Source: Candidatus Micrarchaeota archaeon (GTDB taxonomy: Archaea; Micrarchaeota; Micrarchaeia; Micrarchaeales; CABMGC01). Taken from it: a stretch of DNA of 64,000 nt. The translations under genes were made by a program, and so were the position numbers. The first letter of the stretch is position 1. The number at the start of each line of letters is the position of its first letter. A model generated the notes under the pieces. The model did not search any database. It had not been told where the DNA came from and saw only the letters and a program-made list of their open reading frames with translations. This document shows positions 483 through 56,416 of the stretch, piece after piece. The stretch lies in the NCBI GenBank assembly GCA_021803425.1, contig JAJZLN010000020.1:3924-67923 (forward strand). The letters are read 5' to 3'.

Positions 483-1235
483 TCATGGGCCTGCTGCTGC
501 GCGCAAATTGCCTATAACGCCGAAATCCATGATTTCTCTTTCGCCTAAGCACAGCGCCCTCATATTGTTTATGTCTATAAAAGACCTAAAAAATGGCACA
601 ATATCACTAACATCCTGGGTATTAACTCCAACTCCCTCAGCAAAATAGTTCATCGCAGGCAAAACTATCGCCTCTTGTCCTTTTTTCGTCTTGCCATAAA
701 GAAAGCAGTGCAGCTTCTCTTTTACACCCACTTTATTGTAAAGGGTTATTGCAGGATGCAGATGGCCCATAACAATAAGTTTGTACAGTTTCTCCCTGGG
801 CATTCCGTCACCGTGGAAAAATAATCTGCTGTTTTCAAGCATTTCGCATGAAAATGTCTCGATTCCTATCCTGTTTTTTACCCTATCCACAAAATTGTCG
901 TGGTTGCCTTTTATCAGGGTAATTCTGCCCAGCTCAAGCTCGGATTTCAAGTAATCAACAAGCTCGCGTAGTTCTTTAAATTCCTCAATGTGGACTTTGG
1001 AAAACTCGTTTTTTATATCCCCATCTATTATCAGCCTGTCCGCCTTCGTTTCATTTACAGCGTGAGTCAATATCCTTTTTATGTTTTTTAAGTTTACTTT
1101 TGGTATGAAATTGCCCTTCTCTGCCATGACGCCCTCATAACCAAGATGCAAATCAGAACATACCAACGCATTCATGCTTTTTATGAATAACACCGGATAG
1201 CCTTCAACTATGCAAAGATCTTCTGTAATCTTCAT
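483..1235 (-). CDS. Metallophosphoesterase (calcineurin-like), partner of the upstream Lhr-type helicase
   Basis: 250-aa ORF with metallophosphoesterase motifs CSDLHLG (DxH), IIDGDIKNEF (GD), IKGNHDNF (GNHD) and MGHLHP (GH). Its ATG overlaps the helicase stop by 4 nt, implying one operon. Confidence 0.8.
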   Translation of the reverse strand: MKITEDLCIVEGYPVLFIKSMNALVCSDLHLGYEGVMAEKGNFIPKVNLKNIKRILTHAVNETKADRLIIDGDIKNEFSKVHIEEFKELRELVDYLKSELELGRITLIKGNHDNFVDRVKNRIGIETFSCEMLENSRLFFHGDGMPREKLYKLIVMGHLHPAITLYNKVGVKEKLHCFLYGKTKKGQEAIVLPAMNYFAEGVGVNTQDVSDIVPFFRSFIDINNMRALCLGEREIMDFGVIGNLRAAAGP

Positions 1236-3877
1236 TTTTTCACACCACGTATCCTTTTCATTACCTCCTTATGCAGCTCCCTGAGATGCCTTCTCCTGTC
1301 ATGCATCATTATGACATCGGCTTCCCCGAACGTCATCATCATATGTGAAAATGGCGAAGGCACTGGCGTATCTATTATCTTATAAACGATATCCTTGCTT
1401 ATCAGTGACTTTATTATCGTTCCGGCCCTCGGCAGATCCATAATGTCTTCGAGTATCTCCCTATAGGTTTCCTTAAGTATAGGAAAATCGCCTCCGATTT
1501 CCTCCACAGCTTTCAGCATCAGCTGGGAGCTTACCTGCTGCTTCCTCACACTTATTTTATATCCAACATAGTTTCTTAGCACCATGAAAGACCTAGCAGC
1601 GCAGTACCTGAACCTTCTTTTCATCATCTCTGTCCTTCTTATGTTGTTTTTCAGTAGCTCTGCTGCATCAATGCCTTCAAAAGATCCGATTATGGACTCT
1701 ATGTCGCTTTTTTTAAGCTTCAGGTCGGCTCCAGTTGCAAGGACAAAACCAATATCCCCTACATTTATGCTTACATCTGCACCATATTTATCCGAAATAG
1801 TTATTGCAAATATCCTAGAAATTGCATCATTTATCCTCCGGCCATAAAGGGAGTGAAATATTATAAGATTCCTTTTGCCCTCCTCATCGAACACCTTTTC
1901 TATAAGCATTGCCTTATGGTTTGGCACAAAATTTGCAAACAATATCTGTTCGGCAAAATAATTGAATGCAGAATTCCTTGAATTGTCATCCATAGGCATG
2001 CGCTCCAATATGCTTCCCTTCCAGTTTTTCCTCGTAAACACCTGTCTGTACCCTGAGTTATTTTTTATCAATTCTGAGCTTCTGACCTCAGTATCGAACG
2101 ATTCCCTGAATTTGCCTATTTCTATAGCCAATTCATATGTCAATGGAAGCTGTTCGGAAAACCACGGGGGTATGGTCGGAATTTGTCCCGGAGCCTCTGT
2201 TACATGGCATGTCATGATGCGTGAATACTCAAACCGGTATGGCTTGCCGCCCAACACAAATATGTCCCCTGGCTTAAGCCTGGTAAGGAACTCCTCCTGT
2301 ATGCTGCCTATCCATTTATTCCCTGGGGCCATCACATTTATCGACACTTCATCAGGTATTGTCCCTAAATTAAGGAAATAAATGAGCCTTGAGCTGCCCT
2401 TTCCATAAAATTTGCCATTTTTTTCATCATACACTATCTTCGCGTACACTCGCCTGTTTTCGAGTTCAACATACTCTCCGGACAGGTATCTAAGTACCGA
2501 TATAAAATCTTCTTTAGGCAGTGTTCGGTATGCATACGTTCTTCTGACAAGGTCAAATGCAGAATCAATATCCCATTTCTTGGTTTGTGACATGCCTACA
2601 ATATGCTGGGATAAAACATCGAGAGCGTTCTTTGGCGTGGTGAATGAATCCAATCTTCTCCTCATGGCAGCGTCAAGCATTACAGAACATTCTATTAGAT
2701 CATCCCTATTAGTCACTATCACTTCCCCCTTTGCAACATCATTGAAGCTGTGGCCACTTCTTCCGATTCTCTGCACAACCCTGGACACGCTCTTCGGCGA
2801 ACCCAACTGCACTACGTTGTCTATAGTACCTATATCTATCCCAAGCTCAAGGCTTGTGGAAGAAACTGCACACTTTAACTTGCCTTTCTTAAGCATGTCT
2901 TCAACACCGAGCCGCATCTCACGGGATAGTGATCCATGGTGGGCTGCGATATCTTCGTTATAGCCAAACTTCTTGGTTAGATTGTATACGACTCTTTCCG
3001 TACCACTTCGCGTATTAGTAAATACAATGGTGGTCCTGTTTTCCTTTATTATCCGGTTTATCATCTGATATATTGAATCCTCAATCCTGGAATCTTTGGC
3101 GTTTATTATGTCCCTCACAGGGCATATGGCAGTAAAATCCATTCTTTTTTCCCATGTTGCGTCTATAATATAACAGTCTCTTTCAGTATCTTTTGAGTAT
3201 CCGACAAGAAATCTTGCGGCATTGTCAAGAGGAGACAGGGTTGCCCCTAACCCTATCCTAACAAAACCATGCCCGATCAAGTCTTCCAGCCTTTCTATTG
3301 AAAGAGAAAGATGCACTCCCCTTTTGTTGTTGGCAAGTTCATGCAACTCATCGATAATGACATACTTAACACTACCTAAATTTTGTAAAAATCTTTCTGA
3401 ATTTATAATTATTGCAAGACTTTCTGGAGTAGTTACAAGTATATTTGGAGGGTGCTTGATGTGCTGCTGCCTAACCTTCGCAGTAGTGTCTCCCGTTCTT
3501 ATACCAACAGATATCTTTTTTATAGGTATTGTTATGTCTGAATATATCTCATCTATTGGTGCAATAAGATTCTGATATATGTCGTTATTCAACGCTCTTA
3601 ATGGAGATACATATATGCAATATACCTTCTCCTCTAATTTGCCAGAGAATGCCAAGTTCATAAGGTCGCTGAGTATTGATGTGAAAGCAGAAAACGTCTT
3701 TCCACTTCCCGTAGGCGCCGTAATAAGGACGCTCTTGTTGTCACTTATCAACTTAAGTGCATATTTCTGCGGAGGGGTAAGCTCCTTGTACTTAGACTCA
3801 AACCACTTTCTTACGAATATGTTTAAGCGTCCAAGGCTCTCTTCCTTGCTGTATGGCTCCTTGATATATTCTATCAC
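1232..3877 (-). CDS. Lhr-family SF2 ATP-dependent helicase (paralog 1)
   Basis: 881-aa ORF with motif I APTGSGKT, motif II IIDELHEL and motif VI QRIGRSGH. A long C-terminal extension is characteristic of Lhr-like (DEAD/DEAH plus DEAD-associated) helicases. Confidence 0.9.
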   Translation of the reverse strand: MIEYIKEPYSKEESLGRLNIFVRKWFESKYKELTPPQKYALKLISDNKSVLITAPTGSGKTFSAFTSILSDLMNLAFSGKLEEKVYCIYVSPLRALNNDIYQNLIAPIDEIYSDITIPIKKISVGIRTGDTTAKVRQQHIKHPPNILVTTPESLAIIINSERFLQNLGSVKYVIIDELHELANNKRGVHLSLSIERLEDLIGHGFVRIGLGATLSPLDNAARFLVGYSKDTERDCYIIDATWEKRMDFTAICPVRDIINAKDSRIEDSIYQMINRIIKENRTTIVFTNTRSGTERVVYNLTKKFGYNEDIAAHHGSLSREMRLGVEDMLKKGKLKCAVSSTSLELGIDIGTIDNVVQLGSPKSVSRVVQRIGRSGHSFNDVAKGEVIVTNRDDLIECSVMLDAAMRRRLDSFTTPKNALDVLSQHIVGMSQTKKWDIDSAFDLVRRTYAYRTLPKEDFISVLRYLSGEYVELENRRVYAKIVYDEKNGKFYGKGSSRLIYFLNLGTIPDEVSINVMAPGNKWIGSIQEEFLTRLKPGDIFVLGGKPYRFEYSRIMTCHVTEAPGQIPTIPPWFSEQLPLTYELAIEIGKFRESFDTEVRSSELIKNNSGYRQVFTRKNWKGSILERMPMDDNSRNSAFNYFAEQILFANFVPNHKAMLIEKVFDEEGKRNLIIFHSLYGRRINDAISRIFAITISDKYGADVSINVGDIGFVLATGADLKLKKSDIESIIGSFEGIDAAELLKNNIRRTEMMKRRFRYCAARSFMVLRNYVGYKISVRKQQVSSQLMLKAVEEIGGDFPILKETYREILEDIMDLPRAGTIIKSLISKDIVYKIIDTPVPSPFSHMMMTFGEADVIMMHDRRRHLRELHKEVMKRIRGVKK

Positions 3878-4916: not shown

Positions 4917-6110
4917 CTATTCTCCGCGTTTCCCTATTGAAAGCCGTACTCCTCCTTGGCTTCGCGTAATTGTTATGTCAAGTCCGTCACTTCCAAGCAT
5001 TTTTCTCAGCTCTTCATACGTGTATGACCCTATATCACTATTGGCGTCCTTGTCCTTTAGTATTTCACTTCTCTTCTGCATCAAGAAATCTTTTTTTATC
5101 GTGGCATATGTCAACCCTAGCTTAGGCACCTCCGCGGCATACATATCGTCAACTCCGCGTTCTATTGGCTTATATCCTTCACTTTGATATATGAATGGGA
5201 ATACTGCAGAAAATTCCGCTTTTATCTCGGTTATGAGTTTATCAACTTTGTCCTGATTCCCTGCAACTACAAAATCATCTCCGTTCAGAAATCCGACAAA
5301 CACGTCAGATCCCCATTCCTTTACCTTCTCCTGCAGAAGCTGCGACACAAGCCGCAGTATGGTAACACCAGAGTCAGTTCCGAAGCGCTGCGCAAATTCA
5401 GCGAGCCCATCAACTCTCAGCCTACCAAGTTCATATTCATCATTATTTTCATTTACTATCTTTTCCACCGCTTCAGATATCCTGTCTTCATTTGGCAAAT
5501 CGACAAGAGGATCGAACTTCTTGCCCTTCTTTTTCAAGAATATTGTAACAAGGCTTCTAAGTTCAACAGGATCGAAAGGCTTTCTTATATAATAATCCGC
5601 ACCGTACTTTATACCTTTGAATCTGTTTGATGTAGGATCCATGGCACTTACTATTATCACTATTATATCGCTTAGATTAGATGTTTTTTTGATGGTCTGG
5701 CATATCTCAAGCCCATCCATACCTGGCAACATTAGGTCAAGTATGACAAGATCCGGCTTTTCGCCTTTTATCTTGGCCATTGCTTCGCTCCCATCATAAA
5801 GCTGTGTTATCTCAAATCCCTTGCCAATGCTTAACCCCATCAGCTTGTTGATGTTCTTGTCATCCTCCACTATCAATATTCTCCTCAAAGAATCTTCGCT
5901 CTGCAAACCGTAATATGTCAATATTCCGCCGCTATTTCTAGACGCTATTGCATTAGCAGCTTCAAGCTCTTTGAGATTGTTCTTCAGCTCATCCTCTTTT
6001 ATACTCAAAGATGAAGCAAAACTTTTCAGCTCGTTGTAAGTTACCTGCTGCCTATCATTTATCATTGATATTATATCGGATTTTATGTCAATAATAGAGC
6101 CCATAACCAT
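4917..6110 (-). CDS. Response regulator: wHTH-like N-terminus, receiver domain, degenerate GGDEF-like C-terminal domain
   Basis: 397 aa. The receiver domain reads RILIVEDDKNINKL.., PDLVILDLMLPGMDG (phospho-acceptor Asp context) and YIRKPF. The C-terminal ~150 aa follows the GGDEF-fold pattern (DPLVDLPNE.., LRVDGLAEF, RFGTDSGVTIL, VGFLNGDDFVV), with NGDDF in place of GG(D/E)EF. Confidence 0.8.
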   Translation of the reverse strand: MVMGSIIDIKSDIISMINDRQQVTYNELKSFASSLSIKEDELKNNLKELEAANAIASRNSGGILTYYGLQSEDSLRRILIVEDDKNINKLMGLSIGKGFEITQLYDGSEAMAKIKGEKPDLVILDLMLPGMDGLEICQTIKKTSNLSDIIVIIVSAMDPTSNRFKGIKYGADYYIRKPFDPVELRSLVTIFLKKKGKKFDPLVDLPNEDRISEAVEKIVNENNDEYELGRLRVDGLAEFAQRFGTDSGVTILRLVSQLLQEKVKEWGSDVFVGFLNGDDFVVAGNQDKVDKLITEIKAEFSAVFPFIYQSEGYKPIERGVDDMYAAEVPKLGLTYATIKKDFLMQKRSEILKDKDANSDIGSYTYEELRKMLGSDGLDITITRSQGGVRLSIGKRGE

Positions 6111-6250: not shown

Positions 6251-7249
6251 GTGCATTTAATGGCATTCAATAAAAAGCGGGGTTTCGCAAAAAAACTTAT
6301 GGTTGTCGTAATCGTAGCGATAGTGATCATAATAGCCGGAGCGCTCATGCTGAACGGAACTCCTACGGTATCCTCGCTTACTACAGTATCCATTATACGT
6401 AATTCAAGCTATAATTTTTATCTTCCTGGAGCCAGCGATTTGTTCTCAATATATCTCATATCTAGTTCGCCATCATCTACAACGCTCTATTTTGGAAAGG
6501 CGCCGATACTGAATAACAACATAGGAGTCGTACAACTAGGTGAAGGCCAGAGCGCAAACATAAGCCTAAATGGCGATAGTAATGCAGACCTGCAGATATC
6601 GGTAATCGCATCAAGCTTAAAATCGGCAACACTTTCGCTTTCATATATACCAAGCACAATAGGGATAAAACAAAGCTCTATTGTCAAATCGCTCAATAAT
6701 TTCAACTCAAGCTATCAGCAAACCCAAACTTCTATTCAAACTACAGTTGCGCAGCAATCGAATACACAGCAGCAAACATCCACAACCACCGTTGCAGTTA
6801 CCACAATACCGCAGGAGACAGCATCGCAGCTGGCGATAACTGCAGCTAACCAAACTTATTTAGGAAAATTAATGTCAGGATATAACCAAATTTATGTGCG
6901 GGAAGCATCGCTCTGCACGCCTTCTGCGTATAATACATCCTTCCTGGAAGCCAACCATTATCCTCCTTCAGGCCCATATACATATTCAAATGCAAGCGTT
7001 GTTGTGCCGAGATATATAACTGCAAATGCAACATTAGTATCAGGTGATACTTACAATGCAACGTATACTGCAGCATCTCTTTCAGGCAAATCTACAATAC
7101 TTATATTCACATTCAACAACAATACAAAAGCCGTGACAAGTTACACATTCAAAGGAGATTTCCTGGACCTTTCGTATAATGAAGCCCTCCAGCAGTACCA
7201 ATCAATGAACTTATCTTCAGGAGGGGACTGCTCCGCTTATATACCTTGA
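6251..7249 (+). CDS. Membrane-anchored or secreted Ser/Thr/Gln-rich protein, hypothetical
   Basis: 332-aa ORF. The N-terminus has basic residues then a hydrophobic helix (KKLMVVVIVAIVIIIAGALML). A low-complexity Q/T linker (QQTQTSIQTTVAQQSNTQQQTSTTT) and many N-x-S/T sequons are present. The ORF track starts at GTG 6251; ATG 6260 is an alternative start. Confidence 0.6.
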   Translation: MHLMAFNKKRGFAKKLMVVVIVAIVIIIAGALMLNGTPTVSSLTTVSIIRNSSYNFYLPGASDLFSIYLISSSPSSTTLYFGKAPILNNNIGVVQLGEGQSANISLNGDSNADLQISVIASSLKSATLSLSYIPSTIGIKQSSIVKSLNNFNSSYQQTQTSIQTTVAQQSNTQQQTSTTTVAVTTIPQETASQLAITAANQTYLGKLMSGYNQIYVREASLCTPSAYNTSFLEANHYPPSGPYTYSNASVVVPRYITANATLVSGDTYNATYTAASLSGKSTILIFTFNNNTKAVTSYTFKGDFLDLSYNEALQQYQSMNLSSGGDCSAYIP

Positions 7250-9498
7250 TGCTCGCTTTTGTTGTATTTTAGGGTCCTATCCCTGACCTTCGGATTAATT
7301 GGCAGCGTAAACCAGAAAACGCATCCCTTTCCCAATTCCGAATCAACATTTATCCTGCCTCCATGAAGATTTACTATCTCCTTTGCTATTGAAAGCCCCA
7401 ATCCGGTTCCGGAGCCTTCCTGTTTTACAAGGCCCCTCCTGAGTTGGTAGAATTTCTTGAATATCTTAGGCTTGTCTTCTTTTGCTATTCCTATCCCCGT
7501 ATCTGAAACTTCTATTCTAACACCGCGTGATCCGCCTGTTTTTTTCATGATGTGGATTTTTATGCTGCCAGTTTCGGTGAATTTCAGCGAATTGCCTATG
7601 AGGTTGGAAAACACCTGGATCAGCCGATTTGGATCTGCAGTAATTTCGGGAACGTCATAATCAACTATCCATAAAAATTCGAGATTTTTATTTTTGCATG
7701 CCTCCTCCAGAGATTTTATGCTTGGATTCTCCTTTATTTCATTGAAGTTTACCCGCTGAAAATCAAGTTTGACTATGCCTGATGACAATTTTGCAACATC
7801 AAGTATCTGTTTGACCAACAGAAGGAACCTTTCAGATTCGTCATGGATTATTTGTATGTAGTCTATCTGTTCCTTGGTAAGATTTGAAGAGTAATCGGTA
7901 AGGATTATTTTTGAAAAACCCATTATATTAGTTATTGGGGTTTTGAGATCATGGGATATATTGTATATGAATTGGGATTTCAAATCGCTTTCAGTCCTGA
8001 GTTTTTCCACATCTCTTATGGCTTTATCAAGTTCCTCGTTCAGCAATTCAAGTTTTTCTTTAGTTGCAAGCTCCTTATTCATTATTATGAACTTTATTAC
8101 CTTTCCCTTCTCGTCCTTTATGGATTTTATTGTTTGTACGCAGTGCATGCTCCCGTGCGTCTTGTAATCAACAAGATTAACATATACATCACTTATATAG
8201 CCATTTGTTTTGGCAATGGATAATGATGCTGAAAGCTTATTCTGGCTCTCGGAATCCGCGCATATGGAATATATTGACATCCCTACAATCCCTCTTTCAA
8301 GCTTGAAAAGAGATCCGGCAGCAGTATTGTATGAAATTATATATCCGGAACCATCGGCTTCTATAATTGGCTCATTTGATAAGCTTAACACATCTTCGGT
8401 TATAGTCTCTGCGCTGCCAACAAAGCTCTCATAATCCTTAGACGCTATGCAATAAATTTGATTCCCGCTCTTATATGAAAGCATCTTGCCTGAAAATTCT
8501 GCACCTCCGCCAAAATCAAATTTTAGTTTATTGTAATGTTTCTGCTCTGCTGTTGCCTTGAGTAGATTCTTTGCATTAAGTGGTTCAACAATGAAATCGG
8601 ACAGCTTCTTTCCCACCAATATGTCATTCCTTATCCCAAAAAGTTCAAGAGAGCTCCTGCTTGACCATAATATATTAGTATCATCGTCAAGTATCAAGAA
8701 TGTTTCACTGTCAGTATTGTCCAGAAACTGCAGCTTAGACCACGCTTCCTTTGTAGCGCTTATATCATTAGCGAGCAAATGCAAAAGATTATCATTTATC
8801 TTGCTTGGAGAAAGTTCGAATATCCTATCGCTGCCGTGTGCTTTCAGCTCTATGGACATTCCTTTCTTTAGCTTTGCAAAATTCGCTTCGCTGATTTCAA
8901 ATATCTCAGATATGTTGGATCCAAGGATATCCTTCTGTGAGATATCAAATAGATTCAATGCGGGCTTGTTGGCCTTGGCGATGCGTCCTTCTGAGTCTAT
9001 AAGCAACTGTGGAAGACGGTTATTGAATGAGGCATCGAAATAGCGTGCTATGTTTAAGCTTTTGTCGCGCTCATATTTTGATCCCAGTTCACTGCACGTC
9101 ACTGCAGAAGCAATTGATAGCATATTAATCTTGTCTTCGCCAAATCCTTCATTGGTTTTGGAGAGGAGGGTTATAGTGCCGAAATGCCTTCCATCCTTAG
9201 ACATGGGAATTATCGCACAGCTCCTGAACCCATTATTGTAATATTTTATTAGTTCCGGAAATGCGGAATAGTCGCTAAGCTCATTATCCACATATGGCTT
9301 TCCGGTATTCAATACCACCTCTTCAGCAGCAACTATTACAGAGCTGGGAGAATACTCCTTGACTATGATTTCATCAATTGAAAGCAACGCCTTTAGATAA
9401 TCGCCAAATTTATACAGAAGATCTCTATAGCTTGAAGATTTAGTACTTATTCCAAGAGTTTCAATTACAATATTATCGTTTGAAGCGGACGTAAGCAT
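7237..9498 (-). CDS. Cytoplasmic sensor histidine kinase (GAF-like plus PAS-like repeats, HisKA, HATPase_c)
   Basis: 753 aa with no obvious TM helix. H-box ISHDLKTPITNIMGF, N-box FSNLIGNSLKFT, G1 VSDTGIGI, G2 EGSGTGLGLSIAKEIV. The 3' end overlaps the convergent gene 6251-7249 by 13 nt. Confidence 0.9.
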   Translation of the reverse strand: MLTSASNDNIVIETLGISTKSSSYRDLLYKFGDYLKALLSIDEIIVKEYSPSSVIVAAEEVVLNTGKPYVDNELSDYSAFPELIKYYNNGFRSCAIIPMSKDGRHFGTITLLSKTNEGFGEDKINMLSIASAVTCSELGSKYERDKSLNIARYFDASFNNRLPQLLIDSEGRIAKANKPALNLFDISQKDILGSNISEIFEISEANFAKLKKGMSIELKAHGSDRIFELSPSKINDNLLHLLANDISATKEAWSKLQFLDNTDSETFLILDDDTNILWSSRSSLELFGIRNDILVGKKLSDFIVEPLNAKNLLKATAEQKHYNKLKFDFGGGAEFSGKMLSYKSGNQIYCIASKDYESFVGSAETITEDVLSLSNEPIIEADGSGYIISYNTAAGSLFKLERGIVGMSIYSICADSESQNKLSASLSIAKTNGYISDVYVNLVDYKTHGSMHCVQTIKSIKDEKGKVIKFIIMNKELATKEKLELLNEELDKAIRDVEKLRTESDLKSQFIYNISHDLKTPITNIMGFSKIILTDYSSNLTKEQIDYIQIIHDESERFLLLVKQILDVAKLSSGIVKLDFQRVNFNEIKENPSIKSLEEACKNKNLEFLWIVDYDVPEITADPNRLIQVFSNLIGNSLKFTETGSIKIHIMKKTGGSRGVRIEVSDTGIGIAKEDKPKIFKKFYQLRRGLVKQEGSGTGLGLSIAKEIVNLHGGRINVDSELGKGCVFWFTLPINPKVRDRTLKYNKSEHQGI

Positions 9499-13215: not shown

Positions 13216-14655
13216 TTATCCTTTCACTACTGCAATAGGCACATTCCTTGCAACAGCCTTGGCAATACCAGCATTGCCAACAGTCTTCACCACTTCATCA
13301 ACATCTTTATATGTCCACTCAGCTTCTTCGCTTACTAATTTTTTTGTCCTTATCCTTATGCTTATGTTTTTATTACTCAGGGAATTGAAAGTTTTTGATG
13401 CTGGTATCTCTCTTAGCGCTTGGTGCCTTGACATTACTCTTCCAGCGCCATGGCATGCAGACCCAAAGGTTTCTTCCATTGCACCATCACTGCCGCATAA
13501 AACATAGCTTGCAGTACCCATGCTTCCCGGTATAAGAACAGGCTGGCCAACGCCCCGGTATTTTTTTGGTATTTCATCCCTTCCCGCAGCAAATGATCTT
13601 GTTGCGCCTTTACGGTGCACATATACCTTCCTCTTCTTTCCCATGACCATATGCTCTTCCAATTTGACTATATTATGTGACAGGTCATACAGTACATCCA
13701 TGCCCAAAGCGTCAGAACTCTTCTTAAACACATTTTCGAAACTTTTGCGGATTGAATTGGTGATTATTTGCTTATTAGTAAATGCGTAATTCACAGCGCA
13801 TTTCATTGCCCCCATATAATCATAAAATTCGTTGCTGCCCACATGCGCATACCCCAATTCAGGATCAGGAAGTACTATATTGTGCTTCTTCTGATACTCA
13901 AGCAATATCTTCAGATAATCACTGCATATTTGATGGCCAAATCCGCGTGACCCCGTATGAACCATTATAACTATTTGGCCTTTGTACAGCCCATATGCTT
14001 TTGCAGTTTTGTCGTCTAATATGCTTTCAACCTTTTGTATTTCAAGAAAATGGTTTCCTGCACCAAGCGTCCCTAGCTCGTTGAGCCCTCTAGATCTAGC
14101 TTCCTTGCTTACTTTGGAAAAATCAGCGCCTGACATGCCCCCGTTTTCTTCTATTCTTTCTATATCTTCATCGATACCAAAGCCCTTCTCGATTATATAT
14201 GGCACTCCGTGCTCGGCTATTTTTTGCAAGTCTTTTTGAGAAAGGCCTAAATTCATTCTGCTCCCGACACCACTTGGGACATTCTTGAACAGCTCATCCA
14301 ATATGTTTTCTACGTTTACACGTAATTCTGCTTCTTCGATATTGGTCTTGATAAGCCTTACAGAGCAATTTATATCAAACCCAACAGCGCCAGGAGAGAC
14401 TATGCCATTTTCTGCATCCGACGCCATTACGCCGCCTATAGGGAATCCGTATCCTTCATGTCCATCAGGCATGACCATGACATTGCCGACAAGGCCCGGA
14501 AGCTTTGCGGCGTTTGACGCCTGAATAAGCGTCTTGTCAAGTTTCATCTTTTCGATCATTTGCTTGTTAGAATAAATGACTACATCAGTATTCATACCTG
14601 GAAATGCTTGTTTCTGTACCATAAACTTATTATCATTGATTATTTCTATCTCCAT
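13216..14655 (-). CDS. rtcB: RNA-splicing ligase RtcB (3'-phosphate/5'-hydroxyl RNA ligase)
   Basis: 479 aa with PDGHEGYGFPIGGV, GAGNHFLEIQ, HTGSRGFGHQ and ACHGAGR. No intein is evident. Confidence 0.95.
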   Translation of the reverse strand: MEIEIINDNKFMVQKQAFPGMNTDVVIYSNKQMIEKMKLDKTLIQASNAAKLPGLVGNVMVMPDGHEGYGFPIGGVMASDAENGIVSPGAVGFDINCSVRLIKTNIEEAELRVNVENILDELFKNVPSGVGSRMNLGLSQKDLQKIAEHGVPYIIEKGFGIDEDIERIEENGGMSGADFSKVSKEARSRGLNELGTLGAGNHFLEIQKVESILDDKTAKAYGLYKGQIVIMVHTGSRGFGHQICSDYLKILLEYQKKHNIVLPDPELGYAHVGSNEFYDYMGAMKCAVNYAFTNKQIITNSIRKSFENVFKKSSDALGMDVLYDLSHNIVKLEEHMVMGKKRKVYVHRKGATRSFAAGRDEIPKKYRGVGQPVLIPGSMGTASYVLCGSDGAMEETFGSACHGAGRVMSRHQALREIPASKTFNSLSNKNISIRIRTKKLVSEEAEWTYKDVDEVVKTVGNAGIAKAVARNVPIAVVKG

Positions 14656-14737
14656 GAAAAATGCCGCAAAACCAAAAGGTAAAGTATTATATATGAGTTA
14701 ATGTTATTATAAGTATACCTGTATTTCAGGTATCACA

Positions 14738-14750
14738 CTTTAAATATAAT
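14738..14750 (+). promoter_or_regulatory. Candidate TATA box for tRNA-Leu
   Basis: CTTTAAATATAAT is centred about 27 nt upstream of the tRNA 5' end at 14772, the spacing expected for archaeal promoters. Confidence 0.4.
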
Positions 14751-14771
14751 ATGTTATAATTACTACGTGTT

Positions 14772-14869
14772 GCAGGGATGGCGGAGCCTGGTCAAACGCG
14801 ATGGACTCAAGATCCATTGGCTTAGGCCTACGAGAGTTCAAAAAACCTGAACAAATCTCTCTCCCTGCA
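14772..14869 (+). tRNA. tRNA-Leu (anticodon CAA), 98 nt, with a 13-nt insertion (candidate intron) inside the T-loop
   Basis: Acceptor GCAGGGA/TCCCTGC plus A; anticodon stem ATGGA/TCCAT with loop CTCAAGA; long variable arm TGGCTTAGGCCTAC. T stem GAGAG (14832-14836)/CTCTC (14857-14861) encloses 20 nt (TTCAAAAAACCTGAACAAAT) instead of the 7-nt TTCAAAT. Confidence 0.8.
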
Positions 14870-14889
14870 TCACTAAAATAAGTGATAGA

Positions 14890-15657
14890 ATGTCTATGAA
14901 ACAAAAAAATAGGGGCAAGTCATTGAAGAAACCAGAGAAGAGGAGGGCGTCAAAAAATGTTTCAAGAATTGCAAAGAAAAGGCCGAGATCGAAGCCGTTA
15001 AGGAGGGCAAAGGCAGCAATAAAATTCAGAGACCAAATAATGTTTGATATAGAGCATTATCCACAGACTGAGGAGTTTACAAGTTCTGCGGCATGCGCCA
15101 TGATGGTGCTGAACCACATAAAACCTGAATTCAAAATGAAAAAGGAGGAAGAGTACAGCATATGGCAAGAGGCCGTCAATGGAAGCATATGGCATGGCTC
15201 CAAATACGGGCTCGCATACTCCATAGCCAAAAGGGGCGCAAAAGTAAAGATACTGAGCAACACTAAGGATGAGGGATACGACAAGAAGCTTGCAGTATAC
15301 GAAAATGTTAACATAGATACACTTATTGCATCATTCAATGAAATAAAAGAAAAGGCATTGAATATGAAAGTTGAGGAGGAATATAGAAATAATCTTTCGA
15401 TAAACGCAATAAAGAAAGCGCTATCTTCGAACCAGATACCGATAGTTTTGATAGATGCAAATGCACTTAATCCATATCTCGATTCATCGCCGCACTGGGT
15501 GCTAGTAAAGGGATATGACAAGGATGCATTTTACATAAATGACCCGTATTCTGACAGCACAGTAACGCTTGATCATGATGCATTCAAATCAGCTTTGGGA
15601 TTCGACAATAATTTCCACTTCATTCTCACAAACGTTAAGTCACAGAAGAAAAAGTAA
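14890..15657 (+). CDS. Peptidase C39-like (papain-fold) protein with Lys/Arg-rich N-terminal extension
   Basis: 255-aa ORF. The core from MFDIEHYPQTEEFTSSAACAMMVL (candidate nucleophile Cys) to SSPHWVLVKGYD..FYINDP (candidate His/Asp) resembles C39-like peptidase domains. The first ~50 aa are almost pure K/R, so an internal start at MFDIEH is possible. Confidence 0.55.
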   Translation: MSMKQKNRGKSLKKPEKRRASKNVSRIAKKRPRSKPLRRAKAAIKFRDQIMFDIEHYPQTEEFTSSAACAMMVLNHIKPEFKMKKEEEYSIWQEAVNGSIWHGSKYGLAYSIAKRGAKVKILSNTKDEGYDKKLAVYENVNIDTLIASFNEIKEKALNMKVEEEYRNNLSINAIKKALSSNQIPIVLIDANALNPYLDSSPHWVLVKGYDKDAFYINDPYSDSTVTLDHDAFKSALGFDNNFHFILTNVKSQKKK

Positions 15658-15785: not shown

Positions 15786-15904
15786 ATGTCAAACGGCCAT
15801 AGGAGCAGGGAAACGCCCGAACACATACCGAACTCGGAAGCTAAGACTGCTCACGACACGAAATACTGCCCTAACCGGTGGAAAAGCGTGTTGCTGTTTG
15901 GCAT
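15786..15904 (+). rRNA. rrf: 5S ribosomal RNA (orphan, not linked to 16S/23S)
   Basis: Terminal helix ATGTCAAACGGC/GCTGTTTGGCAT. Conserved 5S core CCATAGGAGCAGGGAAACGCCCGAACACATACCGAACTCGGAAGCTAAGACTGCTC and ..ATACTGCCCTAACCGGTGGAAAAGCG. The 84-aa ORF 15685-15939 is therefore spurious. Confidence 0.88.
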
Positions 15905-35681: not shown

Positions 35682-38600
35682 TTAGCGTTTCTCTTCAAGC
35701 GCTCTCATCTCTTCGTCTATATCATTCTTCATTTTTTTGAATTTTGATATGAAGAATATTTTGTATATAATGTATAAAATTATTATTATCAGCAGTATGA
35801 GAAAGGTCTTGAATGATACTATTATGGAATAGATTCTGCTTGAAGTTATCCTGCTTATTATAGAATTGCTTGGTATCGTGGTTGGACTGATTGCGTTTAC
35901 AGGAGTTATTAGAGGGACTATATTAGATGACGCCTGCGACGGCGGTTTGCCAGGAAGGCCCCCAGAAGACGAGGATCCAGAAGATGAGGATTGCACAGTG
36001 GTTGTTTGAGGAACAATTGACGTTGTTGATACTGAGGATGTAGAGGATGTGGTAGAAATGGTGGTTGTTGAAGTTTTAGGAGCAGATGTGGTAGGAGGCA
36101 ATACTGCAGTGCCTCCTGTGCCGCCGCTGTTTATTGACTGTACATTAAGCGTTGTGCCTGCAGTAAGGTTTGTATAATTGGAATTGCCGGGATTCTTGAA
36201 CAAGAACGAATATGTGCCAGGGGAGCCCTGCTCAGTCCAGTGCATCACTGAATCGGTCTTTCCGAAGAGCGCTCCGTTGACGTAAAGCGACCATGCGCTC
36301 TGGTTGCCTATCGTCGGGGTGCCGGTGAATGTTATGTTCACCGCTGAATAGAAGCCTGCAGAGCCGGGATTTCCTGAAATCGTAACTTTGAGCGGGCCTT
36401 GTTCCACATCAATGGTATTGGCAACAATTATCCTTGAAGTGCCCAATATGCTTACAAGTCCGGTATTATAACCTGAAACATAAGCGAACGTATTTGTTGG
36501 ATTGAAGGCTATCTGGAACGGCCCGCTGCTCCCGAAGCCAGGTATTGTATTCACTACCTGATTCGTTATGGAATTTATTACACTTACTGTATCTCCTCCA
36601 TAAAAATCGTCTACATATAAGTAATTGCCGTTGAATGCCATGGTTGTAGATCCTGTTCCAGTGCTTATCTGGTTTGGAAGCAGTGTGCAAGTAGCAACAT
36701 CTATTACACCTATTGTCGAATGGGGAGACGCAGGAAGTGAAACATACGCATAAGTGCCGCTTGGATTGAATGTTATAAATGCTGGCGCAGAGCCAAGGCT
36801 GATAGTATTAATCACAGTGTTAGTCGCAACATTTATCACGTTTACGGTGTTGCTTGAATGATCAGCGACATATGCTATATTTCCATTCGGGGCGAATGCC
36901 ACTCCTTCAGGAGCTGAACCGGATACAATAGTATTGATAACGGTATTTGTTGCGGTATTTATCACGCTTACTGTGTTGCTTTCATAATTTGTAACATAAA
37001 GTATTGAGCCTGAAGGATTGAATGCCAGATCAAATGGAAAATTGCCCACGCCTATCGTATTTACCACGGTGTTCGTTGCAACATCTATAACGCTTACAGC
37101 GTTGCTAGGTGAAGTTATAGAACCGGTGTCTAAAACATATGCAAGAAGATTGTTTGCGGGGCTGAAAGCGACACCAAAGGAATTTGATATTATAGGTATG
37201 GAGTTGACTATGCTGTTTGTATCAGAGTCTATCACGCTGACAGTATTTTCTCCATAGTTAGTGACATATGCTACCGGAAGCGAAGGGTTGAATGCAACGC
37301 TGGCTGGCTGCGGAGTTGCTATCGAATTTACAATCACATCCGGCTCAGAAGAGGTCATGTTTCCTATTATAGTCCATAATCCGAATACAGTATTGGAGGC
37401 GCTCATTGTGTTTGCAGGATACTTTACCCCGTTGAATGAGAATACCAATGAATTGTATGAAGTCTCATTTACCAGAAGACTGAATTCCCCGCTGTCTGCA
37501 GAAGGCATTGGTATTGCCTGTGTAAGCGAATTAAGTGAAGAGATCGGGCTTTCCGTATTTATGAAGCTCCATATCCAGTTCCCAGTGTATGGCGGTATTC
37601 CGCCGGATATCGGCACGCTGAAGTTTGATACCTGCCCGTAAGTTATCGTGGAATTTGATTCGGTGTCAGGGCAGTTCTGGGATATAGGATCGATTGCATT
37701 TATCACGCAGTACGTAGCAACTGTCGCAGTTGGCATTACATTGTTTGGAGGATCGTACCTCAGCACAAAGCTGTTCCAGTATGTTATACCCACATCTGAA
37801 TAAACATTCAGAAGATCATCACCAATTATGCCTAAGTAATTGCCCGTTGATGGAGGGCTTTGTATAGTTATTGATGAGCCTATAGGAGGGCCAAATACAC
37901 CCAGCGGCAAAGAATTCCTGCCTATAAAAGCAGTCATTGTGGAGCCTGACAGCAGGACATCGTATTTGTACCAGGTATGTGAAACTGTAGTATCATTACC
38001 AGAAAAGATAAGATTATAGCCCTGCGCCCATACGCTGGTTGAATCAAAACCTGACGGGAAGAATCCGCCCCGGGTATCCAACCTTGCAAACTGGCCACCT
38101 CCCAGAGAGTTTGCCAATACATACACGTCGCCAAGTCCGGCGTTGTTTGTGCCGTAATTTCCGTAACTATACACCCAGAACGTAAGTATCTCATTCGAAT
38201 TGAAATTTGGGACTGAGGTATATGCATAATCCCCTTCTACAGAATTTGCAAAGAATGCGTTTGATGCACCAAACTCGCTTCCGTACTGTGGCGCCGGCGT
38301 GCTGCCTACCTCGTTCGAAGCAACCTCATTCGTAGTCCAGCCGCTGAAAGAGGTTGGATTAATGTTATAGTATATAAATACATTAGCGCCATCATCGTAC
38401 TGCCCGTATGTAGAGCTGAGCTGCGGTGCTTCGCCTACAGTCTGGCCGTTGAAGAAGTTCTGGGACTGCAACCCGAATCCCAGGTATATCACTGAATTTG
38501 AACTTGGAGGCAGTCCTTGAGGAAGTTTTAGCCAGTATGTGGTGTTAGTTACAGTATTTGAATTTCCGGATTCAAGCCAGCTGTTTATCACATTTCCGTT

Positions 38601-38837
38601 AGGATAGAAGAATTCCACATTCTGGAGGTTGCCTGCTTCGTATGGCGCGTATGCAAGGCTGTTTACATTTACCATCTGCTGGAATGAGTTTGCTGTTGCA
38701 GCGTCTTGATAGTTTGATATGCCTATTGGGACACAGTATACAACATTTGCAGGCACCGAGCCGCAGTATGATGCGCTTGCGCTTTTTAAAAATAGCAAGA
38801 GAATGATTGTTGCTGTTATGTAATGCTTGAAGCCCAT
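35682..38837 (-). CDS. Giant modular surface protein (1051 aa): signal peptide, DUF2341/LamG-like region, Ig-like module, YVTN beta-propeller repeats, conserved module, Ser/Thr stalk, TM anchor
   Basis: Signal peptide ..FLKSASA/SY. The N-terminal region follows the DUF2341-like pattern (NVEFFYPNGNVINSWLE...TYWLKLPQGLPPSSNSVIYLGFG). The Ig-like module carries SGGIPPYTGNWIW. About 7-8 repeats of ~40 aa match the YVTN type (e.g. LAYVTNYGENTVSVIDSDTNSIVNSI, ILYVTNYESNTVSVINTATNTVINTI). The module NITFTGTPTIGNQSAWSLYVNGALFGKTDSVMHW follows. It ends in poly-S/T, a hydrophobic helix and a charged tail. Confidence 0.85.
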   Translation of the reverse strand: MGFKHYITATIILLLFLKSASASYCGSVPANVVYCVPIGISNYQDAATANSFQQMVNVNSLAYAPYEAGNLQNVEFFYPNGNVINSWLESGNSNTVTNTTYWLKLPQGLPPSSNSVIYLGFGLQSQNFFNGQTVGEAPQLSSTYGQYDDGANVFIYYNINPTSFSGWTTNEVASNEVGSTPAPQYGSEFGASNAFFANSVEGDYAYTSVPNFNSNEILTFWVYSYGNYGTNNAGLGDVYVLANSLGGGQFARLDTRGGFFPSGFDSTSVWAQGYNLIFSGNDTTVSHTWYKYDVLLSGSTMTAFIGRNSLPLGVFGPPIGSSITIQSPPSTGNYLGIIGDDLLNVYSDVGITYWNSFVLRYDPPNNVMPTATVATYCVINAIDPISQNCPDTESNSTITYGQVSNFSVPISGGIPPYTGNWIWSFINTESPISSLNSLTQAIPMPSADSGEFSLLVNETSYNSLVFSFNGVKYPANTMSASNTVFGLWTIIGNMTSSEPDVIVNSIATPQPASVAFNPSLPVAYVTNYGENTVSVIDSDTNSIVNSIPIISNSFGVAFSPANNLLAYVLDTGSITSPSNAVSVIDVATNTVVNTIGVGNFPFDLAFNPSGSILYVTNYESNTVSVINTATNTVINTIVSGSAPEGVAFAPNGNIAYVADHSSNTVNVINVATNTVINTISLGSAPAFITFNPSGTYAYVSLPASPHSTIGVIDVATCTLLPNQISTGTGSTTMAFNGNYLYVDDFYGGDTVSVINSITNQVVNTIPGFGSSGPFQIAFNPTNTFAYVSGYNTGLVSILGTSRIIVANTIDVEQGPLKVTISGNPGSAGFYSAVNITFTGTPTIGNQSAWSLYVNGALFGKTDSVMHWTEQGSPGTYSFLFKNPGNSNYTNLTAGTTLNVQSINSGGTGGTAVLPPTTSAPKTSTTTISTTSSTSSVSTTSIVPQTTTVQSSSSGSSSSGGLPGKPPSQASSNIVPLITPVNAISPTTIPSNSIISRITSSRIYSIIVSFKTFLILLIIIILYIIYKIFFISKFKKMKNDIDEEMRALEEKR
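36208..36377 (-). repeat. Conserved ~170-bp tract shared with 43475-43645 (about 93% identical by eye) and 22786-22950
   Basis: By-eye alignment shows about 11 mismatches in ~170 nt. Exact runs include GAGCCCTGCTCAGTCCAGTGCATCACTGAATCGGTCTTTCCGAAGAGCGC and CCGTTGACGTAAAGCGACCATGCGCTCTGGTTGCCTATCGTCGG. Confidence 0.85.
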
Positions 38838-42712: not shown

Positions 42713-45700
42713 TTATGATCCTAGCCTTGGCCTCTTGTTTTTAAGCATGTACAGGACTGCAATGATTATTATTATGATGATTATGATTACTGCGATAAGC
42801 AACACACTCGATGTTGAAGATGGAGTCGGCTGAGCAGCGGCAGTTGTAGGAAGCAACGTAGACACTGCTGAAGCGTTTGAAGGCGTTTTTGGCGCAGTAT
42901 GGTTCTGCTCCATTATTGCTACAACGGGATCTGCAGGCATGCTGAATGAGACTGTGCATGATGTTGCATTCACAGTGAACGGAGATATTGCGTCCCACGT
43001 ACCGTTCTCGAGAATGAAAGGCCTTATGTTTGCTGCAGGTATATTGCAAGGATAGCTGTATTTTACGTTTATGTGATTAACTACTGTCGCATTGGATGTG
43101 ATGTTCGTAGCTGAAAGCTTTGTGAAGCCGATGAGGGCGTTCGGAGAGAGCGCAGTAACGTTTATTGCAAGCAGCTTTGCTGTTGAATTTGAGGAGCTGT
43201 TCGATACAAGCTCAATCGTGACTCCTGTGTTGCTGAAGTTTATCTGCTGCGATGCTCCATGCGTCAAGTTAACTGTCTGATTGAGCGAAGTTGATGGAGG
43301 CACTGTAGTTACCACTGTTGATGGCGTGGTAGTTGGAGCAGTTGTAGGTTGAGTCGTTGGAGGAGGGGATGAAGATGAGACTGCAGATCCTCCGGTGCCG
43401 AGCGATCCGACCTTCAGCGTGGACGTAAGCGATGATGAGGTGTAGTTTGCGTTTCCGGGATTGGTGAATGTGAATGAATATGTGCCGGGTGAGCCCTGCT
43501 CAGTCCAGTGCATCACTGAATCGGTCTTTCCGAAGAGCGCCCCGTTGACGTAAAGCGACCATGCGCTCTGGTTGCCTATCGTCGGAGTTCCGGTGAATGT
43601 TATATTCACCGCAGAATAGAAGCCTGCGAAGCCGGGGTTGCCTGATGAAGTCGCAGACAGCAAATCGTTCGATTCTACTACCACGGTGTTTGTCACCTGC
43701 GGCACTGAATAATAGATTGTGGTTCCGGTGTCAGTGACTATCACATTGAATACGTAGTTTCCAGGTATTGTGTTTGAATTTAGCGTATTTGTCGATGAAA
43801 GAGTCGATGGTGAAACTGTGTTTTGCGCCTCTGCGTTGTTGAGCGTGAATGCGTATATGAAATTGCCAGTTCCGCTTCCTCCTGTGACTGCTGCCGTAGT
43901 GATTACAGAGTTTCCGTAAAGTATTGAGTTTGTGACGATTCCTGATCCTGTCTGAACGGTGAGGGAAACAACTGGAGTTGAATATGCGACTATTTGCGAA
44001 GAATGGAGAGAGTTCATTGTAACAGAAATAGATGCATGATCAGAAACGAATACGTTTGACACAAGCGTGTTTCCTGCATTTCCCGTTGCCTGCCAAAGGA
44101 ATGAGTTCGATGATGTAAGCATGTTAGCCACCTGTATGTTAGTAATGCTGTTGTATACGATGAAGTTGTAGGTGTATGGAAGCGTACCTCCAGTATCGTA
44201 TGCTGCGAAATTTACGTATTGTCCTGTGTCTACGAGCGTGTTGGATGCGGAGATTGTCGGGGTCTGAAGCACTGAATTGACTGTGATTGTGGATGTATGC
44301 AACGAGTTCACTGTCACTGAAGTTGATGCGCTGTCCGTTACGAATACGTTTGCCACAATTGTGTTTCCTGCAGATCCCGTTGCCTGCCAGAGGAATGAGT
44401 TCGATGATGTAAGCATGTTTGCGACCTGTATGTTAGTAATGCTGTTGTATACGATGAAGTTGTAGGTGTATGGAAGCGTACCTCCAGTCTCGTATGCTGC
44501 GAAATTTACGTATTGTCCCGCATCTACGAGCGTGTTGGATGCGGAGATTGTCGGAGTTGATAAGTCCGGATTTACTTCTATGGTATTTGATATTGAATTG
44601 GAGACGAATGGAGTTGAGGTGCCGGTGTCTGTTGCAATGATGTTGAATGTCTGGGCTCCCTGAACAGGTATGTTGGAACCGAAGGTTATCGTTCCTGAAA
44701 ATCCGGCAGGCTCTATGATCGTATTTACTACAGTGCCTCCATTCATCAGGTTTACAGTAAACGGACCGGTGCCTCCGGAAAGAATGGTGTTGTATGTTAC
44801 GTATTGTCCAGAATCAAGCATCACATTGGACGGAAGAGGCGTGGTCGAAGAGGGGGCAGGATCTATCGTTATAGTGTTGGACAGTGTCACGGTGTTGCTT
44901 CCATAATAGTAAAGGTTGGTGCCGTTGTCCTGAGCAAACCCGTAGAGTGTCCATTGACCATAGATTGTATTTTGACCTGTACTTTCAGAATATGTAATTC
45001 CATTGAATGTATATGTTAAAGTGTTGCTGCTTACTGCGTCTGTTGTTAATTGCGTTAAACCTGAAGACGGAATTTCCTGCAACGATGTTTCAGGGAGATT
45101 CCCAATTAGGTATACTTGATCTGGGGCAGCTGAAATATATGCAAAAGCGCCAGAGGGGTTGAAAGCCACACCATTTGGATTAGTATTACTTATAGTAATT
45201 GTTTGACTCACGGTATTTGTGGCCACATCAATTACATTTACCTCACCTGCATTGAGTGTTACGTAGGCGAGGGTGCCGGAAGGATTGAAGGCTACATCTA
45301 TTGGAGAAGAACCTACAAAGATTGTATTGACTACTGTATTTGATGATAGTTGAATTACGCTTGCTGTGCTGCCACCTTGGTTTATAACATAGGCGAGGGT
45401 GCCAGAAGGATTTATTGCTAAAGCGTATGGATTAGAACCTACATTGATGGTATTTACTACTGCATTTGAAGCCACATTTATTACACTTACTTCGTTGTTG
45501 TAATAGTTTGTGAAATATACTAACGTGCCGGAAGGATTGAAGGCTACGCCATAAGAAGGAGCACCTACATTAATGGTATTTACCACTGTGTTTGTAGCTA
45601 CATCAATTACATTTACTAGGTTAGTATTATACGACCCAGTATATACTAGAGTGCCGGAAGGATTGAAGGCTAAGTCTCCTTGAACATTTTGTAGGATAGT

Positions 45701-46189
45701 ATTAATTACTGTGTTTGTAGCAAGGTCAATTACGTTTACTGTACCTAATTGCGAAGAGACGTATGCAAGGGTGCCAGAAGGATTGACGGCTAGGCCATCA
45801 GGCTTCGTTTCATAGATAGTATTTACCACACTATTTGTAGCAACATTTATTACGTCCAATTCATATGAGCCAGGAGCAAGAACATAGGCGAGGGTGCCGA
45901 AAGAATTGAAGGCTACGGTACTTGGAGTAGAACCTATAGTAATGGAATTCAAAACATTATTATTTACTTCATTTGAAGTTATCCAGCTCCACTGCCCGGA
46001 ATACGGACCTCCGGATCCGCCGCTCACTGCGGTGTTCGCGACGGATATCTGGCCGACGTCTATTATCGTGTTGGAAATAGTAAAAGAATTGTATGCCGCA
46101 GAGAACTGCGCTGCATGCGAATAGCTCGAAAATACCAGGAACGAGAAAAGGGCAAGGAGCGAGAACCGAATGTAGCTGTAAGAATCCAT
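42713..46189 (-). CDS. Giant modular surface protein (1158 aa): signal peptide, Ig-like module, YVTN beta-propeller repeats, multiple Ig-like modules, conserved module, Ser/Thr/Pro linker, C-terminal domain, TM anchor
   Basis: Signal peptide ..FSSYSHA/AQ. About 7 repeats of the type AFNPSGTLAYV..xxVxVIDVATNTVVNTI are present. Ig-like modules carry GGT(L)PYTYNF and GGTGPFTVN motifs. The module NITFTGTPTIGNQSAWSLYVNGALFGKTDSVMHW is present. The C-terminal domain is shared with 22186-24021 (..VKYSYPCNIPAANIRPF..). It ends in an Ile-rich TM helix and a KNKRPRLGS tail. Confidence 0.85.
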   Translation of the reverse strand: MDSYSYIRFSLLALFSFLVFSSYSHAAQFSAAYNSFTISNTIIDVGQISVANTAVSGGSGGPYSGQWSWITSNEVNNNVLNSITIGSTPSTVAFNSFGTLAYVLAPGSYELDVINVATNSVVNTIYETKPDGLAVNPSGTLAYVSSQLGTVNVIDLATNTVINTILQNVQGDLAFNPSGTLVYTGSYNTNLVNVIDVATNTVVNTINVGAPSYGVAFNPSGTLVYFTNYYNNEVSVINVASNAVVNTINVGSNPYALAINPSGTLAYVINQGGSTASVIQLSSNTVVNTIFVGSSPIDVAFNPSGTLAYVTLNAGEVNVIDVATNTVSQTITISNTNPNGVAFNPSGAFAYISAAPDQVYLIGNLPETSLQEIPSSGLTQLTTDAVSSNTLTYTFNGITYSESTGQNTIYGQWTLYGFAQDNGTNLYYYGSNTVTLSNTITIDPAPSSTTPLPSNVMLDSGQYVTYNTILSGGTGPFTVNLMNGGTVVNTIIEPAGFSGTITFGSNIPVQGAQTFNIIATDTGTSTPFVSNSISNTIEVNPDLSTPTISASNTLVDAGQYVNFAAYETGGTLPYTYNFIVYNSITNIQVANMLTSSNSFLWQATGSAGNTIVANVFVTDSASTSVTVNSLHTSTITVNSVLQTPTISASNTLVDTGQYVNFAAYDTGGTLPYTYNFIVYNSITNIQVANMLTSSNSFLWQATGNAGNTLVSNVFVSDHASISVTMNSLHSSQIVAYSTPVVSLTVQTGSGIVTNSILYGNSVITTAAVTGGSGTGNFIYAFTLNNAEAQNTVSPSTLSSTNTLNSNTIPGNYVFNVIVTDTGTTIYYSVPQVTNTVVVESNDLLSATSSGNPGFAGFYSAVNITFTGTPTIGNQSAWSLYVNGALFGKTDSVMHWTEQGSPGTYSFTFTNPGNANYTSSSLTSTLKVGSLGTGGSAVSSSSPPPTTQPTTAPTTTPSTVVTTVPPSTSLNQTVNLTHGASQQINFSNTGVTIELVSNSSSNSTAKLLAINVTALSPNALIGFTKLSATNITSNATVVNHINVKYSYPCNIPAANIRPFILENGTWDAISPFTVNATSCTVSFSMPADPVVAIMEQNHTAPKTPSNASAVSTLLPTTAAAQPTPSSTSSVLLIAVIIIIIIIIIAVLYMLKNKRPRLGS
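43475..43645 (-). repeat. Conserved ~170-bp tract, copy in the 1158-aa gene
   Basis: See 36208-36377. It corresponds to roughly aa 849-906 of the protein. Confidence 0.85.
43970..44557 (-). repeat. In-frame tandem duplication, 2 x 294 bp (98 aa), inside the 1158-aa gene
   Basis: Protein aa 545-642 and 643-740 both begin TPTISASNTLVD(A/T)GQYVNFAAY(E/D)TGGTLPYTYNFIVYNSITNIQVANMLTSSNSFLWQATG. The first ~60 aa differ at 2 positions and the distal third is more diverged. DNA copies are 44264-44557 and 43970-44263. Confidence 0.9.
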
Positions 46190-56399: not shown

Positions 56400-56416
56400 A
56401 TTAGTGCCCCATTATT

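Follow-up and report, generated by a model that had tools for sequence, protein, structure and literature searches.

T-loop introns with relaxed bulge-helix-bulge (BHB) motifs were described in Micrarchaeota, in ARMAN-2, in 2011 (PMC3239211). For this organism, Candidatus Micrarchaeum acidiphilum, the published accounts give 56% of the tRNA genes as disrupted (PMC3239211, PMC3488258, PMC5829648, PMC6379350). The pre-tRNA-Cys(GCA) is reported to carry a relaxed hBH T-loop intron at position 59/60 (Fujishima et al. 2011, PMC3239211; Hirata et al. 2012, PMC3488258), and the pre-tRNA-Pro(GGG) is reported to carry T-loop introns at 53/54 and 59/60 (PMC3239211, PMC3488258). The three-unit ε2 EndA of ARMAN-2 is reported to cleave the relaxed hBH T-loop intron of pre-tRNA-Cys in vitro (PMC3239211, PMC3488258), and strict-specificity α4 or α′2 enzymes barely cleave such relaxed substrates (PMC3488258). 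Non-canonical BHB introns, at 53/54, 56/57, 59/60 and other positions, are also found in the tRNAs of Thermoproteales and Nanoarchaeum, where they are cut by (αβ)2 EndA (PMC4090602).

The gene considered here, a class II tRNA-Leu(CAA) gene in a 64-kb stretch of DNA from a Candidatus Micrarchaeota (DPANN) genome that was analyzed as a whole (the window), contains 13 additional nucleotides within its T-loop. An earlier note on this DNA had proposed a candidate non-canonical intron, and in its conservation, its motif and its predicted product the insert behaves as an endonuclease-spliced intron. We put the probability that it is a real intron of the archaeal protein splicing pathway, in a functional tRNA-Leu(CAA), at about 0.88 from the comparative sequence evidence.

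The insert resembles the ARMAN-2 Cys and Pro introns in belonging to the same phylum and in being short and inside the T-loop, with a motif that is formed on T-arm bases, a 3′ site in a 3-nt bulge and an inner helix that is weak or absent. It differs from them in the identity of the tRNA, in a junction that the BHB rule places at 58/59, one base upstream of 59/60, and in an outer helix that is formed by a slipped T stem, whereas in ARMAN-2 the T stem is in its normal register; cleavage in the window is predicted. ARMAN-2 itself may carry the same tRNA-Leu(CAA) intron, or may not. In the case of Thermoproteales and Nanoarchaeum, the likeness lies in splicing by EndA and RtcB and in the conservation of only those intron bases that form the motif, but the phylum and the endonuclease architecture are different, and whereas Thermoproteales introns often have the appearance of recent transposition from one tRNA to another, the intron in the window is a stable orthologous feature of one tRNA gene in many species. 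The canonical strict hBHBh′ intron at 37/38 has the same 3-4-3 geometry and is cut after the second bulge base, with the T stem and loop in the window standing in for those of the anticodon arm; the window intron differs in lying within the T-loop and in having h′ reduced to 1 bp.

Table 1. Coordinates of the tRNA-Leu(CAA) gene, its predicted splice motif and neighboring or related features (window positions unless a locus is named).
Feature	Coordinates	Strand	Basis or remark
RtcB, RNA ligase	13216-14655	-	Pfam RtcB 542.8 bits, whole profile; divergent, 116 nt from the tRNA gene
TATA-box-like archaeal element TTTAAATA	14739-14746	+	~26-33 nt upstream of the mature 5′ end; putative promoter
tRNA-Leu(CAA), class II	14772-14869	+	Rfam tRNA model, end-to-end match, 98 nt
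5′ exon, 70 nt (acceptor 5′ strand, D arm, anticodon arm, long variable arm, T-stem 5′ strand, T-loop 54-58)	14772-14841	+	Rfam tRNA match; pairing across 20 orthologues
Anticodon CAA	14808-14810	+	Read from the sequence; anticodon loop CUCAAGA
BHB outer helix h, 5′ strand GAGA	14832-14835	+	Minimum-free-energy fold; pairing in all orthologues
Central 4-bp helix H, exon strand G53 U54 U55 C56	14836-14839	+	Fold and orthologue pairing
5′ bulge/loop AAA	14840-14842	+	Predicted cut 14841/14842; geometry from the BHB rule
Intron, 13 nt, AAAACCUGAACAA, position 58/59	14842-14854	+	Junction set by the BHB cutting rule
Inner helix h′, single possible pair	A14843-U14848	+	Window intron
Central helix H, intron strand GAAC	14849-14852	+	Conserved; pairs with 14836-14839
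3′ bulge AAA	14853-14855	+	Predicted cut 14854/14855; bulge seen in minimum-free-energy fold
3′ exon, 15 nt	14855-14869	+	T-loop 59-60, T-stem 3′ strand, acceptor 3′ strand, discriminator A
BHB outer helix h, 3′ strand UCUC	14856-14859	+	Pairs with 14832-14835; T stem in slipped register
Integrase-associated coordinates, intron-less lineage	L025 10528-11751; L070 3387-4580 and 8797-9132; L053 1-186

The tRNA-Leu(CAA) gene and its insertion

The match to the Rfam tRNA model scores 45.9 bits against a gathering score of 29 and leaves 14 nt of the T-loop unaligned, and it is the only Rfam match within 14700-14950. The acceptor stem has 7 bp, the D arm is typical of archaeal tRNA-Leu, and the 3′ exon is without an encoded CCA. 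This match and the full pairing in orthologues bear out the earlier description of a class II tRNA-Leu(CAA) with all arms intact, and the coordinates given for the T-stem halves proved exact when re-read: GAGAG (14832-14836) and CTCTC (14857-14861) enclose 20 nt (TTCAAAAAACCTGAACAAAT), not 7. ARAGORN found three other tRNAs in the window and did not call the unedited gene. Deletion of 14842-14854 in silico, with which alone ARAGORN calls the window gene, yields an 85-nt sequence that is called tRNA-Leu(caa), with the T-loop UUCAAAU; as the earlier note had claimed, this is the T-loop of tRNA-Lys and tRNA-Met in the window, and the behavior with ARAGORN agrees with the intron that it had proposed. 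Precise removal of the insert restores a standard cloverleaf in the orthologues as well as in the window gene.

The failure of ARAGORN to call the unedited gene would also fit a decaying pseudogene or an assembly artefact, but this reading is exceedingly improbable, since the stems are intact, compensatory changes occur across species, the promoter box is conserved and the same architecture is found in 54 distinct genes. Indeed, in an alignment of 20 orthologous sequences (19 of them distinct) 100% of the cloverleaf pairs are formed, with compensatory changes at four of them (acceptor 7-66, one in the D stem and two in the anticodon stem), and neither the lost pairing nor the absence of conservation that would mark a tRNA pseudogene was found. 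A box of the TTTAAATA or TTTTAAT type lies at an equal distance upstream in all 20 genes (the window and 19 orthologous loci). The exact 98-nt sequence with the insert is found in three independent assemblies (ERZ27237460, GCA_027363095.1 and ERZ27237515), and because it is identical in all three, the sequencing error that the earlier note had named as a possible refutation is excluded. The conservation data thus effectively refute a pseudogene or artefact, and the intact stems, compensatory changes and conserved promoter box mark 14772-14869 as a functional tRNA-Leu(CAA) gene. A self-splicing group I or group II intron was also considered and was rejected, as the insert is 13 nt long and the catalytic core of such introns is hundreds of nucleotides.

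Several other features of the window were observed. A 5S rRNA gene (15789-15902, +; Rfam 62.2 bits) stands alone, outside an rRNA operon, ~900 nt downstream of the tRNA-Leu gene, and the segment 178-233 (-), which adjoins tRNA-Gln (372-446), has sub-threshold matches to archaeal C/D-box sRNAs (sR2, 37.7 bits against a gathering score of 42) and is a possible guide RNA gene. The protein-coding features include adjacent gyrB and gyrA genes for DNA gyrase (53994-58330, -) in a small archaeal genome; a response regulator (4917-6110, -) and a PAS/GAF histidine kinase (7237-9498, -) on the same strand and ~1.1 kb apart; two Lhr-type helicases (1232-3877, -, and 51235-53988, +); and two proteins of >1000 aa with weak β-propeller matches (35682-38837, -, and 42713-46189, -).

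Orthologues with and without the insertion

With RtcB used as an anchor, 24 loci were obtained from a species-representative genome collection, all of them MAGs, in which RtcB is 62-74% identical. Of these loci 23 are labelled Candidatus Micrarchaeota and one Marsarchaeota, which agrees with the DPANN/ARMAN-type setting that the earlier note had suggested. An exact 40-nt exon pattern gave 0 matches in the genome collection. A complete tRNA-Leu(CAA) gene is present in 19 of the RtcB-linked loci, and all 19 have an insertion at the identical T-loop site. In a metagenome collection, a pattern scan with the 5′ exon up to GAGTTCAA identified 54 further loci, 40 with the insertion and 14 without it. 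The 19 genome loci and the 40 insertion-bearing metagenome loci were pooled as 54 distinct insertion-bearing genes, and across these the insert is 11-23 nt long, with 12-15 nt commonest and 13 nt, the length in the window, being the mode. The earlier placement of 13 nt at the short end of described introns is thereby refined, as 13 nt is typical within its own T-loop intron family. The middle of the insert is variable, in contrast to the conserved 6-7 nt at its 3′ end, (U)GAACAA; the in-silico spliced sequences are exactly 85 nt long in all 43 distinct cases.

In the case of the insertion-free loci, ARAGORN called an 85-nt tRNA-Leu(caa) in each of the three that were run, the T-loop is UUCAAAU in all of the genes, and one insertion-free gene is only 2 nt apart from one spliced orthologue. 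The group is narrow, containing three sequence variants, and the best named matches of its GuaA are Micrarchaeota, at 86-88% identity.

The insert could instead be retained, giving a mature tRNA with an enlarged 20-nt T-loop, and in keeping with this it folds as a compact hairpin. However, its length ranges over 11-23 nt and its middle is free to vary, while the part that is conserved pairs with U54-C56, bases that need to be free in a working T-loop; the insert-free genes have the standard 7-nt loop, and splicing of T-loop introns is reported in the host phylum (PMC3239211). Retention is on these grounds very improbable, and removal as an intron is the reading that we follow below.

Two of the orthologous introns look like internal duplications: a 23-nt intron (locus L042, 30-137) holds a copy of the exon motif GTTCAAAG, and in an 18-nt intron (L048, 1800-1902) TGAACAA is followed by GAGCAA, repeating the intron 3′ end. 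In a related lineage, a 94-nt Rfam tRNA match that ARAGORN reports as 'tRNA-??? (tcca)' occurs at two loci (L030 11212-11305, -, and L049 7586-7679, -); this probably represents a further tRNA with an intron, which may be tRNA-Trp interrupted in the anticodon loop.

Downstream of tRNA-Leu(CAA), at a distance of 80-100 nt, three loci of the intron-less lineage encode a tyrosine (phage-type) integrase, and no such integrase was found beside the intron-bearing copies of this tRNA gene. In one of the three (L070), an 11-12-nt sequence repeated from the tRNA 3′ end (CTCCCCCTGCA, 8697-8708) precedes a second copy of the element, and this suggests tandem integrated elements with the acceptor 3′ strand as the att core. 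The idea that the intron serves as a guard against integrating elements was considered but is not supported, because the repeated att core comprises no more than the terminal 11-12 nt of the tRNA; these lie on the 3′ side of the intron, which would leave the core uninterrupted.

Geometry of the splice motif

The BHB cutting rule, known from the canonical 37/38 geometry with its anticodon-intron pair, places a cut in each 3-nt bulge, between its second and third bases. When folded to minimum free energy (-35.7 kcal/mol, z = -3.4), the 98-nt sequence shows the helix GUUCA/UGAAC (14836-14840 with 14848-14852) that had been noticed in the earlier reading, followed by a 3-nt AAA bulge and a 4-bp GAGA/UCUC helix. 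Numbered locally from 14772 as 1, the pairs of the central helix are G65-C81, U66-A80, U67-A79 and C68-G78, and those of the outer helix A64-U85, G63-C86, A62-U87 and G61-C88, with the 3′ bulge at A82-A84; on the 5′ side A69-A71 are unpaired and are followed by a possible pair A72-U77, and the cuts would fall at 70|71 and 83|84. The outer helix uses the T stem with its 3′ strand shifted by two bases, a slippage made possible by its (GA)n/(UC)n sequence, GAGAG/CUCUCUC. This register places the 3′ splice site in a true 3-nt bulge, and the cutting rule, the helix register and the bulge sizes agree with the required product, a T-loop of UUCAAAU. The earlier statement that no strict BHB could be drawn holds in part, in that the strict form is absent from the window gene, where the 5′ site has only a 1-bp h′, but a motif can be drawn when the T stem is slipped.

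All four pairs of the outer helix and all four of the central helix can form in 54/54 distinct genes. The intron strand of the central helix varies only to GAAU, GGAC and GAGC, all of which still pair through G-U; the invariant T-loop supplies the exon strand of this helix, which makes two-sided covariation impossible there. The 3′ bulge is AAA in 51 of the 54 genes and AUA or ACA in the remaining three. In orthologous introns of at least 14 nt, h′ has 2-5 bp and covaries, giving the strict 3-4-3 form; for example, the 21-nt intron of locus L010 has a 5-bp h′ in a strict 3-4-3 bulge-helix-bulge. The second h′ pair is formed in 25 of 30 longer introns (AU 11, GC 9, UA 3, CG 1, GU 1), compared with a mean of 15.2 when partners are shuffled, and none of 2000 shuffles reached 25. 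The shortest introns, among them that of the window with its single h′ pair, have an h′ of 0-1 bp and are assigned to the relaxed hBH form. Registers 0 and 3 score alike in raw h′ pair counts, owing to the A-rich flanks, so that a 5-bp central helix with a plain-loop 5′ site is also allowed; it is the covariation at the second h′ pair alone that favors the 3-nt 5′ bulge.

The junction was described as ambiguous in the earlier note, and this is correct: the run of A residues in the window makes the mature product identical for five junctions, 55/56 through 59/60. The exact position of 58/59 accordingly comes from the BHB rule, as the sequence by itself cannot fix it, and is to be read as predicted. 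The same intron and the same machinery could be combined with another junction, either 59/60 with the T stem in its normal register or 56/57, and such a choice would be served both by the five offsets that yield an identical mature sequence in the window and by the reported use of 59/60 as a T-loop position in ARMAN-2 (PMC3239211). However, with the normal register and a 3-nt bulge before U60, the intron bases AACA would face U54-A57 (UUCA) and form one pair only, and this model fails because the two cannot pair. In addition, cutting at 59/60 in the 21 orthologues whose 5′ bulge is AAU (20 genes) or AAC (one gene) would give the T-loops UUCAAUU or UUCAACU, in contrast to the UUCAAAU of the intron-less genes, whereas cutting at 58/59 gives 3-4-3 geometry in every one of the 54 genes. 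An ARMAN-2-type motif at 59/60 with the normal T stem as outer helix was not found in the window gene, and we regard any junction other than 58/59 as improbable.

Processing enzymes and the proposed splicing route

An RtcB-type 3′-phosphate RNA ligase is encoded in the window (Table 1). Of the 24 genome loci, 23 have rtcB and tRNA-Leu(CAA) head to head, and 12 metagenome loci have this arrangement too. The exact RtcB protein of the window is found on 13 contigs in public assemblies and the exact 98-nt tRNA on three of them. The conserved arrangement may reflect inherited gene order and not functional coupling, because other intron-bearing copies are not beside rtcB.

No EndA was detected in the window by Pfam on 28 of the 63 candidate ORFs taken protein by protein, among the best 25 families of a pooled Pfam scan of 55 ORFs, or by phmmer with the M. 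jannaschii EndA as query, the sequence of which was verified as PDB 1a79; no EndA homologue was detected in 533 kb of fetched loci of relatives. An EndA profile search returned 2288 homologues (E ≤ 1e-15), and the best 120 of these are nearly all 383-395 aa long, with many named Micrarchaeota by NCBI. By sequence, then, full-length three-unit ε-type EndA is abundant in Micrarchaeota MAGs, including sister genomes. One such protein (P0049) belongs to the project series of the window, being encoded in an ENA assembly of neighboring accession and in a DAH-prefixed TPA MAG, the window's own kind. It aligns end to end with the ARMAN-2 EndA (PDB 4FZ2, E = 3.5e-173; residues 10-387) and keeps K161, Y236, H251 and K282, i.e., the catalytic triad and K161. 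Searches for an EndA gene in an intron-carrying MAG reached only sister MAGs of the same projects, and the endonuclease step in the window genome is inferred.

A split EndA enzyme was considered as well, and was rejected. A first word-indexed protein search gave only 100-220-aa products because the EndA gene calls are truncated, and full-length forms were recovered by the profile search. Gene calls of this kind, in which an ε-type EndA gene is split, were observed at an N-run (L079 2414-3582) and at a frameshift in a long-read assembly (L080 2379-3555). In three of the four full-length EndA loci that were looked up, EndA is preceded by a TP_methylase-family gene.

In the proposed route, tRNA-Leu(CAA) would be transcribed from the upstream TTTAAATA box, giving a precursor in which the T arm is predicted to be unformed. 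G53-U54-U55-C56 would pair with the intron GAAC as a 4-bp central helix, below which the slipped 4-bp T stem GAGA/UCUC would stack across the 3-nt AAA bulge, and on the 5′ side a very short inner helix, of 1 bp in the window and 2-5 bp in longer relatives, would come after AAA. A broad-specificity endonuclease, expected to be the three-unit ε2 EndA typical of Micrarchaeota, would cut after the second base of each bulge to release AAAACCUGAACAA, and the exon halves would presumably be joined by the RtcB encoded next door. The T arm would then refold, with a GAGAG/CUCUC stem and the loop UUCAAAU. A more speculative extension, which we consider rather unlikely, is that the (GA)n/(UC)n T stem is under double selection, for the mature T arm and for the slipped outer helix in the precursor, such that splicing needs a programmed refolding, and that the head-to-head pairing with rtcB is a functional coupling of ligase and substrate through a shared promoter region and not mere gene order.

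The intron in the window belongs to the class already described for Micrarchaeota, and the features of a BHB intron that could be tested, namely restoration of the tRNA, the motif and the ligase, were all found. It is a well-supported addition to the known non-canonical archaeal tRNA introns, conserved in dozens of species, and leaves tRNA splicing as currently understood unchanged. ARAGORN called none of the interrupted copies on which it was run (the window and six related loci), and because they are missed, Micrarchaeota genomes may be scored as being without tRNA-Leu(CAA). The 54 variants of 11-23 nt form a natural mutagenesis series for the bases needed by a T-loop BHB motif and for the limit to which the inner helix can shrink, and the closely related intron-less Micrarchaeota lineage provides a clean comparison for intron gain or loss. 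It is this combination, a comparative series together with an intron-less sister lineage, that is the most useful aspect of the finding.
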